A stretch of DNA of 38,414 bases, taken from NCBI GenBank assembly GCA_964490075.1, contig CAZBBK010000060.1:1-38414 (forward strand), read 5' to 3'. The notes beneath the pieces were generated by a model. That model had not been told where the DNA came from, did no database searches, and worked only from the letters and a program-made list of their open reading frames with translations. Positions 397 to 38,296 of this stretch are shown here, in pieces. Position 1 is the stretch's first letter. Each line of letters opens with the position of its first letter. The position numbers and the translations under genes are program-made. The DNA comes from an uncultured Gemmatimonadota bacterium. Its GTDB lineage: Bacteria > GCA-2686955.

Positions 397-2109
397 TCAC
401 TGGTCTCGGTCGCTCGAAACGTCGAATCTCCGCTCCCATTGGTGCTCACATTCCGCGCTGTGATCGAGAGTCCATACAACACTCTGCTCCATGAAGTACG
501 AGCGATCGTTCGCGCCGCCGACCGGCCAGGTCCTCCGAAAACGCCAAATGGGCCGAGTGCCCTCACCTTGAGCGTCGGCGCCTGGTCCGATCGTCGCAGA
601 CCGGGCGCCACGGCCTTCCCCGCCCGGCGGCGAATTCGAGATTGCCGACTCCGTCGACCCTGCCCCTCGGTGGGGCGGACTCGGAGCGGACGGAGATCGT
701 GGCGCAGGGATGGGGTCTGCTCGCACATCGGATCCAGCGTCTGGCGCGCGGTCCCCGGAGCGTTGCGGCCTTGGGCCATCGATCGGTTCCCGTCGTTCTC
801 GCGGCGCGGCGGAAGGGTGGAACTGGGTGTCGCCCACGATCTCCGTTGCGCCTGGCTCCTCGTCCTCATGACGTGGCCACCCCGCTCGCGATCTCTGCCC
901 CTCCACTCCGCGCCGCCCGATCGCCGGCTCCCTCTGGGGGAAGACCGATGGCGGTGCAGCTGCCCCGGGCAAAGACCCCACTCCGGGCGACAGACTACCG
1001 GGAAGAAGCGCTCGCGTATCAATCGCAATCGCGCCAGGAGGCAACACCGGCATGCCGTCCGCCGGGCTGCGCACCGCGAGGGGCCCCCGGCCGAGCACAT
1101 GCGTGTAGACCATGGTCGTGCGCAGATCGGCGTGCCCAAGCAACTCTTGAACCGTGCGGATGTCGTAGCCGTCCTCGAGCAGATGCGTCGCGAAGCTGTG
1201 ACGAAGGGTGTGGCAGCTCGCCTTCTTCTGCAGATCCGCCGCTCGCACCGCGTGCGCCATCGCGCGCTGCACGACGGTCTCGTGCAGATGATGTCGGCGC
1301 AGCTCCCCCGTCTGCCGATGATGGTAACGGCGCGTCGCCGGGAACACCCATTGCCACTTCCAGGAGCGACCGATGTCTGGGAACTTACGGGCCAATGCGT
1401 CGGGAATCTCGACCCAGCCCGCGCCCTGCTCGAGATCTCGCTCATGCTGAGCACGAACCGCCTCCATGTGCTGTGCCAGAGGGATCTGCGCCGCGCCGGC
1501 AAGCAGTGTGACTCGGTCTTTGTTGCCCTTGCCTCCACGAACCGTGAGCTGTCGCGCGGCGATGTCTACGTCCTTGATCCGCAGGCGGAGGCCTTCGAGC
1601 AGACGCAAGCCTCCGCCATAGAGGAGCAAAGCGACCAGGCGCACCGACCCCTCGAGCCGCATGATCACCGTCGCAACCTCCTCGCGTGAGAGCACCACCG
1701 GGAGGTGCTGGGCGCGCTTGGCCCGCACCAGATCCTCGAAGTCCTCCAGCTCGATCTCCAGTACGTTCCGGCACAGGAAGAGCAGCGCCGCGAGCGCCTG
1801 ATTCTGAGTCGAGGCTGAGACCTGTGCCTCGACTGCCAGTGCCGAGATGAACTGTGTCACCTCCTCGGCGTCGATCCGGTCTAGGTCCGACCACCCGCGA
1901 AAGTGGAGGAATCGCCGAACCCACTGCCAGTACGCCTTCTCGGTCTTCCGGCTGTAGTGGCGGATGCGGATCGCCGCGCGAAAGGCCTCTCGAAGCCCGG
2001 GCTCGCCGCCTGCGCTCCCGGTGCTGCCCGGTTCCATCGGCACCCGCCGCGGATTCCTGCGATCCGCGCCTTCCACCCACCGCTTGCGACTCTGCGACTC
2101 GGGCCTCAT
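397..2109 (-). CDS. intI: integron-type tyrosine recombinase (IntI family) with a ~215-aa low-complexity C-terminal extension
   Basis: Translation contains [22 protein letters not shown], the catalytic R (GLRLLEG), K (RGGKGNKDR), [12 protein letters not shown] and [16 protein letters not shown], plus the IntI-specific extra segment [22 protein letters not shown]...RRHHLHE. Strong SD (GGAGAGGAAACCAGAG ATG) at 2109. Alternative start at 2037. No stop where IntI proteins normally end (~1045), so the frame continues to 397. Confidence 0.8.
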
Positions 2110-2690: not shown

Positions 2691-3029
2691 TCAGATCTGG
2701 TGACGCGTCTCCGCACCTCCAATGGTCCTCCCAAGCTCCGTCAACGGTGCACCCAACGTCAGCAAGGTGCGAAACACGAGATCCAAAGAGACCGTTGGGT
2801 CAGCGGCCTCCATCTTGGCTACCTGCGACCGGCTTGACCTCACCAGCCGCGCGACCTCTGTCTGCGTCATGCTCCGCGAGGCTCGCCAATCCCTGACCGC
2901 TGCGGCCGGGGCGATCTTCACGTTCAAGAAGGCCCGTTCCTCTGCCGTCAGATCGAGGAAGTCCTCTGCGCTACCGATCTTCCATCCAGCCTTCTCCAGT
3001 CTCCTCTTCTTGTCTTCTTCTATGCCCAT
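2691..3029 (-). CDS. higA: HigA-like XRE-family HTH antitoxin (112 aa)
   Basis: MGIEEDKKRRLEKAGWKIGSAEDFLDLTAEERAFLNVK...MTQTEVARLVRSSRSQVAKMEAADPTVSLDLVFRTLLTLGAPL is the typical HigA layout: N-terminal extension followed by an XRE helix-turn-helix. ATG at 3029..3027. GC clearly lower than surrounding genes. Confidence 0.6.
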   Translation of the reverse strand: MGIEEDKKRRLEKAGWKIGSAEDFLDLTAEERAFLNVKIAPAAAVRDWRASRSMTQTEVARLVRSSRSQVAKMEAADPTVSLDLVFRTLLTLGAPLTELGRTIGGAETRHQI

Positions 3030-3230
3030 GCTCGCTCGTTGTAGATCCGCGTCATGGGCGCGCAGCCGCTGTCTGCTTGAATCGAGTACAGCTTTCGGGG
3101 TCTTGCCGGTCTTCCTGCTGAACACCGCCGCAATGACGATGGCGTCTTCGTCCATTCGATAGATGATCCTCCGACTCTGGTCGCCATCCTGAATTCGCAA
3201 CTCGCGGCAGCGCGGCGCCTGCGCTGACAT
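3030..3230 (-). pseudogene. remnant of a RelE/ParE-fold HigB toxin (C-terminal ~50 aa only), fused in frame to higA
   Basis: ELRIQDGDQSRRIIYRMDEDAIVIAAVFSRKTGKTPKAVLDSSRQRLRAH matches the ELR...YR...F.KKTQKTP core of Gp49/HigB toxins. The ~55-aa N-terminal half is absent: upstream residues are unrelated and overlap a DNA repeat. No stop codon lies between this segment and the higA ATG (LQRAS-MGIEE). Confidence 0.45.
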
Positions 3231-3282
3231 GAGACGAGAATGCGGCAGGCCCGGCACAGCGATCCTCCACGCAGGAAGCGCG

Positions 3283-3428
3283 GCCGGCACGCGAAGAAGA
3301 GCTGTCGAGACCACCTTCCTACCGCGCCTGGAACCCGGAGGCCCGCGGGCTCCCGCTGGGTCCGCGGTTCTTCGCGGAGTGCGTCGCTCGAGAGGCGCTC
3401 TGTCGAAACCCCTGATCCGGTCCAATCA
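3283..3428. repeat. copy 1 of a ~130-bp repeated element (inverted copy at 37958..38088)
   Basis: The reverse complement of 3283-3408 aligns with 37958-38088 at roughly 85% identity, e.g. CGACGCACTCCGCGA(A/G)GAACCGCGG(A/G)CCCAGCGGGAG(C/T)CCGCGGGCC. Conservation is equal in all reading frames, so it is non-coding. About 17-bp imperfect direct repeats (TCGACAG.GC.CT.TTCG-like) flank an ~80-bp core. Confidence 0.55.
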
Positions 3429-6717: not shown

Positions 6718-6806
6718 TCAGTCCATCCGCGACCGGCGCCACCGACCTGAATCGCCCCCCCCCCGGCGACGCGCCATCCACCCACCCCCCACCGAAAGAG
6801 CGACCC

Positions 6807-7403
6807 ATGAACAACCTGATCGGCAAGCAAGCCCCCGTCTTTTCCGCCCCGGCGGTCCTTCCCAACAACACGATCGAGGACAGCTACAGTCTGAACGATC
6901 TGCAGGGCAAATACGTGGTCCTGTTCTTCTACCCGCTCGACTTCACCTTCGTCTGCCCGACCGAGATCATCGAGTTCAATCGCAAGCTCGACGCCTTCAA
7001 GGAGCTGGGCGCCGAGGTGGTCGGGGTGTCGGTCGACAGCCAGTTCAGCCACCTGGCGTGGAAGAACACCGCCGTCAACGAGGGCGGGATCGGCAACATC
7101 CAGTATCCGCTGGTGGCCGACCTGACCAAGCAGATCAGCCGCGACTACGGGGTGCTCTTCGAGGACGCCGGCATCGCCTTCCGCGGCACCTTCCTGATCG
7201 ACCGCGACGGCATCGTCAAGCACGCGGTGGTCAACGACCTCGGCCTCGGCCGCAATGTCGACGAGACCCTGCGCATGCTCCAGGCCCTGCGCCACCACGA
7301 GCAGCACGGCGAGGTCTGCCCGGCCAACTGGAACGAGGGCGACGAGGCGATGACCCCGAGCCCGGCCGGCGTCGCCGACTATCTCAGCAAGCACGGATCG
7401 TGA
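6807..7403 (+). CDS. ahpC: typical 2-Cys peroxiredoxin, alkyl hydroperoxide reductase subunit C
   Basis: [12 protein letters not shown] (peroxidatic Cys) and GEVCPANW (resolving Cys). 198 aa. No ahpF follows. Confidence 0.9.
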
Positions 7404-7417
7404 CGAGGAGACAGACA

Positions 7418-8020
7418 ATGGCCTTCCAACTTCCCGCCCTGCCCTGGTCCTCGGACGCCCTGGAGCCGTACATCTCAGCCCAGACGATGAGCTTTCACTA
7501 CGGCAAGCACCACGCCGCCTACGTCAACAAGCTCAACGCCGCCATCGAGGGCACGCCCTACGCCGAGATGAGCCTGGAAGAGATCGTGCGGGCCACCGCC
7601 GGCGACTCCACCAAGGCCGGCATCTTCAACAACGCCGCCCAGACCTGGAACCACACCTTCTTCTGGAGCTCGATGAGGCCGGATGGCGGCGGCGCTCCGA
7701 CTGGCGACCTGGCCGCCAAGATCGACGCCGCCTTCGGCAGCTTCGAGGCCTTCAAGGATCAGTTCGCCGCCAAGGCCGCGACCCTCTTCGGCAGCGGCTG
7801 GACCTGGCTGGTCCTGAACAAGGGCGAGCTCGAGATCGTCCAGACCACCGGCGCCGGCAACCCGATGACCGAGGGCGCGACCCCGCTCCTGACCCTCGAC
7901 GTCTGGGAGCACGCCTACTACCTCGACTACCAGAACCGCCGCCCCGACTTCATCGGCGCCTTCCTCGACAACCTGGTGAGCTGGGACTTCGCGGCCCAGA
8001 ACCTGGCGTACGCCGGCTGA
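7418..8020 (+). CDS. sodB: Fe/Mn-family superoxide dismutase
   Basis: HYGKHHAAYVNKLN, FGSGWTWL and DVWEHAYYLDYQNRRPDFI motifs. SD GAGGAG 7 nt upstream of the ATG. Lies 14 bp after the ahpC stop. Confidence 0.9.
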   Translation: MAFQLPALPWSSDALEPYISAQTMSFHYGKHHAAYVNKLNAAIEGTPYAEMSLEEIVRATAGDSTKAGIFNNAAQTWNHTFFWSSMRPDGGGAPTGDLAAKIDAAFGSFEAFKDQFAAKAATLFGSGWTWLVLNKGELEIVQTTGAGNPMTEGATPLLTLDVWEHAYYLDYQNRRPDFIGAFLDNLVSWDFAAQNLAYAG

Positions 8021-27356: not shown

Positions 27357-27610
27357 TAGGGAAAACAGACCTTGGCCGGTTCCCGTTGAAAAGCGCGGCA
27401 TCGCCCCCGGCCTCGGGGAAGATCGCGCGGCAGGGCGCTCGGGCCGCCGCCGGTCCCTCCGCCTCTTGGATGCGCGCCCGGTGCCGGTCACCGGCCGCGA
27501 CCGGATCACCAGGCCCGGGCGTCCGTCGATCTCGCCGGCGCGCGGCGTTGCGGCGCTTGCGCGGTCAGCACCGGAAGAGCCTCGCGCGAGGGAGCCACGA
27601 CCGCGCAAGT

Positions 27611-27830
27611 GTCACAACTCGGCACTCTCGGGGAAGAACGCCGAGCTACGACCGTATTTCCGTCATGACTCGCCACTCTCGATCGAGAATCGCTGGTTAC
27701 GACGCGAATACGGTCGTGGCTCCGGTTTCATCGCGATGAGTAGCGAGTTGTGACGGATATACGGTCGTAGATCCGCACTCTCGATCGAGAGTGGCGAGTT
27801 GTGTCGCGAAAAGGCGTCATGACTCGCGGT
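27611..27830. repeat. mosaic of nested inverted and direct repeats: a ~145-bp imperfect palindrome centred on TCGATCGA at 27680-27687, plus a second partial unit centred on CACTCTCGATCGAGAGTG (27776-27793)
   Basis: GTCACAACTCG (27611) pairs with CGAGTTGTGAC (27745), with a third copy CGAGTTGTGtC (27795). TACGACCGTAT (27648) pairs with ATACGGTCGTg (27708) and ATACGGTCGTA (27759). GTCATGACTCGC occurs at 27662 and 27817. Central 18-bp palindromes lie at 27674-27691 (16/18) and 27776-27793 (perfect). Confidence 0.55.
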
Positions 27831-27999
27831 TCCGGGCGCGGAGCTGGGCTTTGTGTCGGGGCAGCGCGCGGGGATCGTGGAGCCTCGCGTGGGCTGGGCA
27901 GAGGGCCGCGAGCAATGCGGGCGGTCGATGCATGGTCATCGTGGTCTCCCGGTCTTTCGGTCCCGAGTCGATGGGCGCGAGATCCGGCGCGAGCAAACC

Positions 28000-35908: not shown

Positions 35909-37834
35909 TCAAACCTCCGCTCCAACCTCGCTCCGCACGCCCCCCGGAACCCCCTTCGCCGCGGCCACCGCCTCGTCCCGCAGGTCGGGATAGTCGACCA
36001 GCGCCCGCTCCATCCAGGTCAGGTCGCCGCCCATCACCTGCTGACCCAGTCGATAGGCGCGCCGATCGTTGCTGAGCCACATGCCGCGAAAGGCCGCGTT
36101 GATGCGGCGCCGGGCCGAGCCGACGAAGGTGTGAACCAACTGGACCGCCGACTCCGCGTTGGGTTGGCCGCTGACCGCCAGGCGTTGGGCCCGCGCCACC
36201 GCGGCAGCGATGGCGAAGAGCTCCATGCCGACGTCGACGGCGCGGAACAGGAATCCCTGTCGGTACTGCAGCTTGCCCTGGTGCACCAGCATTCCGTAGA
36301 AGGTCTGGCGCGCCAGGCGCCGCGAGATGCGCTCGACGTAGCGCAGGTGCTTGGCCATCGAGCCGAACTCGTGGTAGCCGTCGCCGCGCAAATTCTGTAG
36401 CCCGCGCAACCACAGTCGCGGGTACCAGCGGGCGTAGAACCTGAGCACATCGGGCAGGGCGTCGAGCTTGTCCCGATTCGACTTCTTGGGATCGATCAGG
36501 TCGCCCGCCACCTTCAGGTGGGTGTCGACCGCCTCGCGGGCGATGAACAGGTGCATCACTTCGCTGGAGCCTTCGAAGATCCGATTGATGCGGGAATCGC
36601 GCATGGTGCGCTCGCAAGGCACCGGCGCCAGCCCACGCGCCGCGAGCGACACCTCGGTCTCGTATCCGCGCCCGCCCAGGATCTGCATCGCATCGTCGGC
36701 GATGCTCCAGGCGCGCACCGCGTTCCACTCCTTGGCGCAGGCCGCCTCGAGGCGGATGTCGTAGTTGCCGCGGTCGCTCATCTCGGCCGCCAGGTCGGAG
36801 AGCGCCTCCATGGCGAAGATGGTCGCCGCCATCTCGCCGAGGCGGATGCCGATCGCTTCGTGCTCACCGATCGGCCGACCCCACTGCACGCGGCTGCCGG
36901 CCCACTGGCGACAGCCTTGCAGGGCGCGCTTGCCGGCTCCCACGCAACCTGCCGGCAGTGACAGACGCCCGGTGTTGAGGGTAGTGAGCGCGATGCGCAG
37001 CCCGGCGCCCTCCTTGCCGATGCGGTTCTCGACCGGCACCCGCACCTGGTCGAAGGAGAGCACGGCGTTGGCGAGGGCCGTCAAGCCCATGAAGCGGCAA
37101 CGATGCTCCACCTTGACACCGGGTGAGTCGGCCTCGATGACGAAAGCGCTGATCTTGTTGTCGCTGGGATGGCGCGCCATCACCACCAGGAGTTCGGCGA
37201 TGGTGCCGTTGGTGCACCACAGCTTGGTTCCGGAAACGATGTAGGCATCACCTTCTTCGCTCAGCTCGGCGGTGGTGCCGAGGCTGGCCGGGTCGGAGCC
37301 GACGTTCTGCTCGGTCAGGGCGAAGGCGGAGATCGCGCCGGCGGCACAGCGCGGCAAGAAGCGCTCTTTCTGATCTTCGGTGCCGAAGAGCTTGATCGGC
37401 TGCGGCACACCGATCGACTGGTGTGCCGAGAGCAGCGCGGCGATGTTGCCGTCCGCGCCGCCCAAGAGCTCCATGATGCGGCCGTACTCGAGCTGCGAGA
37501 GGCCATGGCCGCCGTACTCGGCGGGGATCTTGAGCCCGAAGGCGCCCAGCTCCTTCAAGCCCTCGATCACCTCGGCCGGGTACTCGCCGCTGCGGTCGAT
37601 CTCGACCGAATCGACCTGCTCGCGCATGAAGCGTTCGAAGCGAGCCTGGAGCTCTTCGAACTCCGGCCGCTCGCGCTGCTCATCGACCGGGTAGGGATGA
37701 ACCAGGTCGAGGCGCAACGAGCCCAGGAAGAGTTCCTTCAAGAAGCTCGGCTGCTTCCACTCTTTCTCGCGAGCTTCCTCGGCGACCTGCCGGGACTGCT
37801 CCTCTCCCGTGAGCTGGGCTGGACGGTCGGACAC
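35909..37834 (-). CDS. long-form acyl-CoA dehydrogenase (FadE-like, with C-terminal helical extension)
   Basis: ACAD N, middle and C domains (AFALTEQNVGSDPAS, GTKLWCTNG, RINRIFEGSSEV). GTG start with strong SD GAGGAG. Confidence 0.85.
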   Translation of the reverse strand: MSDRPAQLTGEEQSRQVAEEAREKEWKQPSFLKELFLGSLRLDLVHPYPVDEQRERPEFEELQARFERFMREQVDSVEIDRSGEYPAEVIEGLKELGAFGLKIPAEYGGHGLSQLEYGRIMELLGGADGNIAALLSAHQSIGVPQPIKLFGTEDQKERFLPRCAAGAISAFALTEQNVGSDPASLGTTAELSEEGDAYIVSGTKLWCTNGTIAELLVVMARHPSDNKISAFVIEADSPGVKVEHRCRFMGLTALANAVLSFDQVRVPVENRIGKEGAGLRIALTTLNTGRLSLPAGCVGAGKRALQGCRQWAGSRVQWGRPIGEHEAIGIRLGEMAATIFAMEALSDLAAEMSDRGNYDIRLEAACAKEWNAVRAWSIADDAMQILGGRGYETEVSLAARGLAPVPCERTMRDSRINRIFEGSSEVMHLFIAREAVDTHLKVAGDLIDPKKSNRDKLDALPDVLRFYARWYPRLWLRGLQNLRGDGYHEFGSMAKHLRYVERISRRLARQTFYGMLVHQGKLQYRQGFLFRAVDVGMELFAIAAAVARAQRLAVSGQPNAESAVQLVHTFVGSARRRINAAFRGMWLSNDRRAYRLGQQVMGGDLTWMERALVDYPDLRDEAVAAAKGVPGGVRSEVGAEV

Positions 37835-37957
37835 GGTGTACTCCTCGGTGGTTCGATTCGGCGGCTCGAGAGCCTGGGACGTCGCGTTCCGAGGTGGGTG
37901 GCGAGTCGCGCTTGCTGGGAGCGAGCCATCCTACAACACCGGGGAAGCCGCTAGTTC

Positions 37958-38088
37958 GGGCGTTTCGATATGGCGCTTCTCGGGCGACGCACTCCGCGAG
38001 GAACCGCGGGCCCAGCGGGAGTCCGCGGGCCTTCGGGGCTCCATGCGCGGTTGGGGGGATGTTCTCGACAGCGCTTCTTCGCGTGCCG
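37958..38088. repeat. copy 2 (inverted) of the ~130-bp repeated element seen at 3283..3428
   Basis: About 85% identity to the reverse complement of copy 1. Flanking 17-bp direct repeats TCGATATGGCGCTTCTCG and TCGACAGCGCTTCTTCG. A short direct-orientation fragment (CCCCTGATC...CCAATC) recurs at 38127-38166. Confidence 0.55.
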
Positions 38089-38296
38089 CTGCCTCTGCCC
38101 TGTAGCGTTTCTCCCAGCCTGGCTGGAGCCCCTGATCAGGGATGATCCAGTCAGGCCAGGCCAATCCGCCGGGAGCCACCTTTCATGCTCAGCGCTTCGA
38201 GCGCCGGTACAGGGGTGACCCGACCATCGCGGCGGCCTTGTCTGTGCGTTGCAGCAAGGAGTTGGGTATGGAAGAGACGAATGTGTCGCGGAGCCG

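Follow-up and report, generated by a model that had tools for sequence, protein, structure and literature searches.

Upstream of a gene for a 641-residue acyl-CoA dehydrogenase (FadE; positions 35909–37834, minus strand; Pfam Acyl-CoA_dh_N, Acyl-CoA_dh_M and Acyl-CoA_dh_1), and outside that gene, lies non-coding DNA that resembles a second stretch near the opposite end of the same sequence. The question raised by this locus is whether the DNA in front of the dehydrogenase gene is a regulatory region that belongs to it or a later arrival. The window, that is, the whole 38,414-nucleotide stretch that was analysed, is a complete metagenomic contig from a high-GC organism, and its sequence is shared by ENA, JGI, Logan and NCBI assemblies from one marine study. 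The analysis indicates with considerable confidence that the interval is mobile-element debris, a repeat arm joined to an IS110-family remnant, and both belong to known kinds of element. Specifically, two pieces lie side by side: a single arm of a lineage-specific, non-coding dispersed repeat, here named E and described in the orientation of the copy next to the dehydrogenase gene (37956–38100), and a dead IS110-family insertion sequence (IS) that extends from 38101 past the window end and is followed by a palindromic array with a 51-nt period.

Copies of repeat E in the window and elsewhere

A preliminary description of this DNA had reported a second, inverted copy of an element of about 130 nt, and this copy is real: window positions 37956–38088 (plus strand) match positions 3415–3285 (minus strand) with 85.0% identity over 133 nt (E about 5e-37). 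When a profile was built from three copies, nhmmer matched exactly two places in the 38-kb window, copy 2 with an E-value of 1e-43 and copy 1 with one of 1e-39. Copy 2 is a long form of the repeat arm that spans 37956–38100 on the plus strand, beginning with (G)GCGTTTCGATATGG and ending with ...CTTCTTCGCGTGCCGCTGCCTCTGCCC; these boundaries were taken from a four-way alignment that included contigs L035 and L038. Copy 1 (3283–3417, minus strand) is also a long form, with no IS beside it, and its left flank (3409–3417) is the 9-mer GATCAGGGG, which recurs at two other arm termini: at a short arm in L039, in the form GGTCAGGGG, and at a lone terminal motif beyond window position 1. That lone motif, GATCAGGGGTTTCCACAAGAG, lies on the minus strand of L031 (6870–6890), 60–80 nt past the first window position; it is near-identical to the left junction of copy 1 and stands just before the point where all assemblies break. 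Further long arms occur in L035 (11229–11374), L038 (5817–5959) and L043 (960–1090), and the five long arms, including both window copies, are 80–87% identical. Short arms are present in L039 and L043, and L035 has an inverted short arm. About ten repeat units are known, from six or seven loci in one organism.

Exact E cores found 19 loci among GTDB genomes, all chance matches; none and then a single chance match among JGI metagenome contigs, in a collection that evidently lacked the source samples, as the pattern is present in JGI contigs L029 and L031; and nothing in either of two scans of viral contigs. The third copy was reached by using the concatenated six-frame translations of both window copies as a protein query, whose one match was a spurious open reading frame (ORF) on L033; exact-cluster look-up placed this copy on the 26-kb contig L035 from the same sample. 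The same kind of look-up gave the longer contigs L036 and L037, which represent near-identical strains and run past the window end. In addition, position 1 of Logan contig L003 (window ~38013) is an end in the middle of E, implying at least one further copy in that run that shares a 31-mer with copy 2. The inverted repeat pair, together with the other repeat modules described below, accounts for the breaks at these points in all assemblies of this organism.

Two short direct repeats around copy 2 (37965–37982 and 38064–38080) had been read as flanks of the element. They lie inside the unit that is common to all copies and hence cannot be target-site duplications. Their similarity is also marginal in the window, where 50 of 1000 shuffles reach the score of copy 2 and 30 of 1000 that of copy 1, and it is not significant in copies 3 and 4 (436 and 387 of 1000, respectively).

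An IS110-family remnant adjoins the repeat

Directly after copy 2 begins a second module, S (38101–38267, plus strand, 167 nt), which its identity to other loci marks as the left non-coding end of a decayed IS110-family IS. Its sequence is 88–98% identical to that found immediately upstream of IS110 transposase remnants in L038, in L039–L042 and in L043–L044. Within it lie the tail at 38127–38166, the palindrome CCCTGATCAGGG and a Shine-Dalgarno sequence, AAGGAG (38255–38260), which together with the transposase ATG at 38268 occupies 38255–38270. The tail had been interpreted as a piece displaced by rearrangement after insertion; because S is conserved at 88–98% and is contiguous with the repeat elsewhere, it is not a product of rearrangement. 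The proposed homology of this tail, CCCCTGATC...CCAATC, to the flank of copy 1 is not significant, its score being reached in 31 of 200 shuffles, and the 9-mer found at the arm termini has only two occurrences in the window, two or more matches being seen in 14 of 100 shuffles.

The transposase gene remnant begins at 38268 on the plus strand, continues to the last window position, 38414, and, as seen in L036 and L037, reaches ~38830 in window-equivalent coordinates. It retains the ATG and some 13 nt of the 5′ end, after which come an internal deletion and frameshifts. A tblastn search with the frameshift-corrected fragment of the window matches almost exclusively annotated IS110 family transposases. 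In L039, the N-terminal sequence MEEASVWVFVGVDWA directly follows S, with an N-terminal VGVDWA sequence, and gives a weak match to PF01548 (profile positions 1–19, E 0.047), while PF02371 (Transposase_20) matches the homologous remnant P0131 above the cutoff (E 4e-10). The remnant family therefore combines the DEDD/RuvC-like N-terminus and the Transposase_20 C-terminus that identify the IS110 family, and it also has the long non-coding left end typical of IS110, with 167 nt (S) or 313 nt (E and S together) preceding the ATG at 38268. All transposase copies found are frameshifted fragments; a protein search with the reconstructed fragment returned only pieces of 98–230 residues and no intact IS110 copy.

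To the right of the remnant, L036 and L037 complete the layout, which in window-equivalent coordinates runs from E (37956–38100) through S (38101–38267), the AAGGAG and ATG (38255–38270) and the remnant (to ~38830) to a 71-nt module, M71 (38833–38903), and then to R2 (38912–39147), an array of nested palindromes with a period of 51 according to TRF. The window itself holds a lone R2 copy at 27662–27897 (plus strand), which is 94.5% identical to L036 3505–3740, some 500 nt past the window end; the R2 copies in L038, L039 and L045 are 96–99% identical. The array region in the window (27591–27897) sits in a gap of 710 nt that separates a GntR-type gene from a methyltransferase gene. Every IS110 remnant is followed by an R2-type copy (94–99% identical; L036, L038, L039 and L045), and an R2 copy also lies about 40 nt after an IS-free element in L035. 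Since this 51-nt array always accompanies the IS, it may form the right end of that element, or else it may represent a second family of repeats.

The same order of modules recurs at four loci

The order of arm, S, transposase remnant, M71 and R2 is the same at four loci, the one next to fadE and those on L038, L039 and L043; these three contigs stem from this organism but from different assemblies and samples. At L038 the arm is long (copy 4) and 84% identical to copy 2. In L039–L042 a short arm precedes S, and in L043–L044 a different short arm does so, with the fifth long arm 385 nt upstream. The modules to the right of the arm are similar between loci: 88–98% identity for S, 92–97% for the transposase remnants, 96–97% for M71 and 96–99% for R2. 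The start of S is likewise constant, immediately after the ...CTGCCC of the arm; at the same position, IS-free elements continue with GACT(C/T)CG.TGCCCGAATCGGGCA. In contrast, the arms that adjoin S fall into three subtypes; their likeness does not exceed about 85% and, between subtypes, is far lower by eye. A direct comparison of the fadE locus with L038 gives 84% identity for E and 93–99% for the other modules. The arm in L043 is by eye most like an arm of the stand-alone element in L039. This combination of diverged arms and near-identical IS modules fits the entry of one IS into older repeats that would already have diverged. At L039, an AbiEii-type toxin gene and a 98-residue partner (6774–7704) lie between the IS110 remnant and the stand-alone palindromic element, and these may be cargo or mere neighbours.

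IS-free palindromic forms, and genes cut at arm edges

In its complete form the repeat consists of an arm, a GC-rich central hairpin (the TGCCCGAATCGGGCA sequence) and an inverted arm, 170–245 nt in all. One such form, at L039 7750–7918, is a 170-nt arm, hairpin and inverted arm that folds as one long hairpin (z −2.6; only 2 of 200 shuffles fold as well). Another, at L035 11229–11475, comprises a (CCCCTG)3...(GGGCAT)3 hairpin between a long arm and an inverted short arm, and its inverted terminal match scores above all 500 shuffles. Both forms thus carry terminal inverted repeats of the kind that characterizes miniature inverted-repeat transposable elements (MITEs), with at most 1 of 500 shuffles reaching the score; copy 2 of the window is a single arm and has no such pair. 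At none of the junctions read was a target-site duplication seen, and no transposase other than the IS110-type remnant was seen in association with the arms. Copy 1 is possibly an element of this palindromic kind as well, about 170 nt long, if a weak match to the arm profile (3252–3297, plus strand, E 0.53) is a degenerate inverted short arm abutting it; by eye, TCCTCCACGCAGGAAGCGCGGCCGG there can be set against TTCTCCACGCGGAAAGCACCCGG of the L039 arm, a likeness that is not significant alone.

Genes are cut at the edges of the arms. In L043, an ORF for an NTP_transf_2 domain is cut exactly at the arm, at profile position 39 of 93; in L035, an ORF ends at the arm edge; and copy 1 of the window abuts a 5′-truncated Gp49-type toxin gene recognized by Pfam. 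The cut L035 ORF resembles the N-terminus of a tyrosine recombinase but has no Pfam or NCBIfam match. Its surroundings (L035 9380–10000 and 10001–11230) are a graveyard of mobile-element pieces, including a fragment of an IstB-like ORF (IS21 helper), a truncated XerD-like tyrosine recombinase, a second repeat-cut ORF, and a piece in which the last 51 nt of the R2 array run into the last 50 nt of E.

The repeat and the dehydrogenase promoter

A comparison with relatives shows what may be native in front of the dehydrogenase gene. The relatives, L023–L028, come from marine metagenomes and have a FadE that is 79% identical. A conserved −10-like box, GGTGTTGTAGGAT (37928–37940, minus strand), putatively part of the dehydrogenase promoter, is kept in L023, L027 and L028 as GGTGTAGAAT. 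The left edge of the repeat lies upstream of the box, 16–20 nt from it and 23–27 nt from its TAGGAT hexamer. The fadE upstream regions of L023–L028 show no trace of E; they hold 78–175 bp of short, unrelated sequence and have different neighbour genes. Because the relatives keep the core promoter block without E, E is a lineage-specific addition and not part of an ancient shared region. As synteny is not kept upstream either, the comparison does not define a simple empty site. E occupies the same place in every sample of this organism (L001, L002, L036 and L037). It replaces everything upstream of about −35 of the dehydrogenase promoter, with the −10-like box and leader native; any effect of the repeat on this promoter would be hypothetical.

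These observations bear on the model of the preliminary description, in which a simple miniature element of about 130 bp, with flanking direct repeats and a displaced tail, supplies or disrupts promoter or leader functions. Two of its features agree with the data, in that the element is a mobile-type, lineage-specific addition rather than an ancient regulatory region and its edge is close to the core promoter box. As an account of the whole locus it is nonetheless improbable and, given that E and S are contiguous at other loci, largely refuted: the direct repeats, which sit within the unit itself and score close to chance, do not serve as footprints of insertion, the tail is part of the conserved S of the adjoining IS and not a rearranged piece, its flank similarity is not significant, and a search of the region found no sigma-70-like promoter. 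The placement of each copy in the 5′ region of a gene on the minus strand holds only loosely; copy 1 has the stop of a DUF1016_N gene on one side and the 5′-truncated toxin pseudogene on the other, and the two copies have opposite orientations relative to the genes downstream of them. Within E, neither a sigma-70-like promoter nor a terminator was found, and the searches gave no evidence that the stretch upstream of the acyl-CoA dehydrogenase gene is a regulatory element. The interval is best annotated as a repeat with an IS110 pseudogene and not as regulatory DNA of the dehydrogenase gene.

Structured RNA and integron sites as alternatives

It is also worth considering that E, an intergenic and conserved unit of about 130 nt that is GC-rich and has many possible helices, might be a multi-copy structured small RNA gene or a cis-regulatory leader. 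This is very unlikely. Rfam 15 has no match in the window at gathering thresholds, and at permissive thresholds up to E 10 it gives only miRNA and hairpin models at chance level; no family matches E at either setting. Consensus folds of three copies on both strands are penalized for covariation, the compensatory pairs numbering 3 and 0 while many pairs are broken, and the fold z-scores are −0.7 and −1.3. Furthermore, the copies are flanked by unrelated genes and adjoin pseudogenes and IS debris. A tRNA search of E found nothing, and E shows no coding signal, its variable sites being distributed 7, 4 and 3 over the codon phases. A bridge RNA or seekRNA is marked by a conserved two-loop fold whose guide segments pair both with the target and with the ends of the IS. 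For module S, Rfam gives no match, the fold is unremarkable (z −1.3), and the differences between the S of the fadE locus and that of L039 break, by reading, the main predicted stem without compensation.

Copy 1 lies about 1.2 kb from an integron integrase gene (397–2109, minus strand; TIGR02249, 413 bits against a cutoff of 265), toxin–antitoxin remnants lie between the two, and a size of about 130 nt with 85% similarity recalls the attC sites of chromosomal arrays. That E is an attC or attI recombination site of this integrase is nonetheless the least credible of the readings weighed here. By reading and by a crude scan, E lacks RYYYAAC...GTTRRRY ends and its ends are not mutually complementary; the window copies are inverted and 34.5 kb apart, with genes for gyrase-type proteins, PEPCK and other housekeeping functions between them; and other copies sit on unrelated contigs beside IS110 remnants. 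The arrangement that defines attC sites, with R″/R′ ends, an L″/L′ stem and a direct-orientation array by intI, was not found, and the crude scan for R″/R′ and L boxes gave 0 sites in the window against ~0.7 per shuffle.

The integrase region has features of its own. The integrase has a low-complexity C-terminal extension of ~215 residues and, no canonical attC being found in the 38 kb by crude scan, looks array-less (In0-like), unless its array is located past the end of the contig. A palindrome of 41 nt, imperfect and with an AAC...GTT layout (GGGTCCGAAACCGACCCACGGTGGGTCGCGTTCCGACACCC, 2136–2176), lies 27–70 nt upstream of the integrase start; it might be an operator, or else a site of the attI or attC-like kind. 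Positions 2691–3230 (minus strand), which lie between the integrase gene and copy 1, hold a 5′-truncated Gp49/HigB-type toxin fused in frame to an HTH (HigA-like) antitoxin, a decayed toxin–antitoxin pair; a 9-mer match to the arm terminus in the HigB-like coding region (3153–3164) lies inside the Pfam Gp49 match and was dismissed as coincidental. Downstream of the integrase ORF, right where the contig begins, a 33-nt palindrome (9–41) has arms that are 85% complementary. Two other identities considered for the repeats were rejected. The copies are not the terminal inverted repeats of a 34.5-kb element, which is ruled out by the housekeeping genes inside (topoisomerase/gyrase-type, PEPCK and SOD), and the motifs of a Tn3-type GGGG terminal repeat, of parS, of a LexA box and of a sigma-54 promoter do not fit by eye.

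How the repeat and the IS may have come together

Members of the IS110 family insert site-specifically, and in the IS110 group the guide RNA is carried by a long left end that precedes the transposase gene (PMC11208160, PMC11187229); ISPpu9 and similar members insert into REP sequences (PMC12288879). Against this background we prefer a history in which a palindromic, MITE/REPIN-like repeat family would be the site-specific landing pad of an IS110-family element. The palindromic repeat would have spread first; the IS110-family element would then have inserted, with specificity for both site and orientation, at the arm/hairpin junction ...CTGCCC^GACTCC... of several copies; and all IS copies would later have decayed. 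We favour this history because S is joined to arms of three subtypes, which have diverged much more than the IS modules, because complete IS-free elements are arm/inverted-arm doublets, and because IS110-family members insert site-specifically by means of an RNA from the non-coding end, some of them into REP-type repeats (PMC11208160, PMC11187229, PMC12288879). On the full history our judgement is evenly balanced; the order of events and the RNA-guided targeting are what we infer from these patterns. Entry of the IS into the centre of an arm–hairpin–arm element would be expected to leave the hairpin and right arm immediately to its right, and neither was found there in L036, where the similarity was not significant, nor in L038 or L039. 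At the right end of the IS, a candidate degenerate inverted arm (CCGAAATCC, ~38799 in window-equivalent coordinates, by eye) was likewise not significant and was set aside, and no locus was found as an empty/occupied pair.

The main alternative is that E is the outermost part of the left end of the IS110 element itself, so that the ~313 nt of E and S would encode a bridge or seeker RNA, and that the IS-free copies are transposase-less derivatives and lone ends left by deletion; we regard this as possible but doubtful. The two readings differ in where the IS would start, at GCGTTTCGA if E belongs to it and at the beginning of S, TGTAGCGTT..., if the repeat was its target. At the fadE locus and in L038, E and S lie directly upstream of the transposase start and in the same orientation, as would befit the long left non-coding end that is a hallmark of the IS110 group (PMC11208160, PMC11187229), and a single insertion would explain both the gene-cutting edges of the arms, as in the NTP_transf_2 gene of L043, and the missing right half of the palindromic element beyond the IS. 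Against these points, near-identical S modules are joined to three arm subtypes, with arms much more diverged than the rest of the IS; complete IS-free elements are an arm and an inverted arm rather than a left end and a right end; and IS110-group elements lack long terminal inverted repeats (PMC11208160). In addition, covariation supports no structured RNA in E on either strand, single-sequence folds are unremarkable (z −0.7, −1.3 and −1.3), and Rfam has no match.

One short sequence speaks to both readings. The complement of the 9-mer GATCAGGGG is found inside S (38129–38137), conserved there at all loci, so that this 9-mer or its complement occurs both in S and as the left flank of three arm termini, as is expected of guide RNAs and their targets, a point in favour of the left-end reading. 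This 8–9-nt match of S to three arm flanks fits RNA guidance under either model and is suggestive, having been noticed post hoc; it could also be chance or part of the repeat terminus. It invites speculation that the repeats and the IS110 element form a coupled system, which we think rather unlikely, in either of two versions. In the first, the repeat would be a self-propagating, dedicated landing pad recognized by the guide RNA of the IS, and the GATCAGGGG/CCCCTGATC match would be a trace of guide–target pairing. In the second, the repeats would be miniature derivatives that keep the outer left end of the IS and were mobilized in trans by the IS110 recombinase; to our knowledge, a class of MITEs mobilized in this way is not clearly described for the IS110 family.

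Returning to the landing-pad history, its interest would lie in the junction. If that junction reflects RNA-guided targeting, it is a natural example of an IS110-family element specialized on a large palindromic repeat family, and the decayed copies would record several independent insertions, providing comparative material on the choice of targets by bridge RNAs and on their retention. With all copies dead and sampling thin, current understanding is unchanged.

Comparison with known systems

It is informative to examine the repeat and its IS in light of systems that have been described elsewhere. The likeness to integron attC sites is confined to a similar size range, the mutual similarity of the copies and the position of one copy near an integron integrase; unlike attC sites, the copies have neither core-site motifs nor end complementarity, and they are inverted, far apart and outside a cassette array. 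With bacterial MITEs such as Correia/NEMIS, ERIC, RUP and the Tn3-derived TIMEs the repeat has in common that its complete form is non-coding, measures 170–245 bp, has terminal inverted arms, is located in intergenic regions as well as inside other genes and can adjoin promoters. In contrast to MITEs, it has no detectable target-site duplication and no DDE transposase with the same termini, and many of its arms stand alone.

With REP, REPIN and BIME sequences the repeat shares a non-coding, intergenic and dispersed character, a replicative-looking unit that is an inverted doublet folding as a hairpin, and a mosaic arrangement with further short repeat modules, in this case the 51-nt array. As in the REP targets of ISPpu9, ISPpu10 and IS621, an IS110-family element lies alongside at a fixed position and in a fixed orientation. 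The arms differ from REP units in length (75–145 nt against ~20–40 nt), in that only about ten units are known here, and in that the family is confined to one uncultured marine lineage. The combination that marks REP/REPIN systems, namely units of 20–40 nt in high copy number with a REP-associated tyrosine transposase (RAYT), is not seen, and no RAYT gene occurs in the window or in the further loci analysed.

A further comparison is with the left ends of IS621 and ISEc21, from which the bridge RNA or seekRNA is made. Unlike in those elements, no copy found here has a live transposase, E forms inverted doublets and has diverged much more than the IS, and no RNA, promoter or two-loop structure could be demonstrated. 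Nonetheless, as in those elements, S and possibly E lie directly upstream of a gene for a DEDD-type transposase and in the same orientation, and a short sequence in S matches the flanks of several copies of the repeat.
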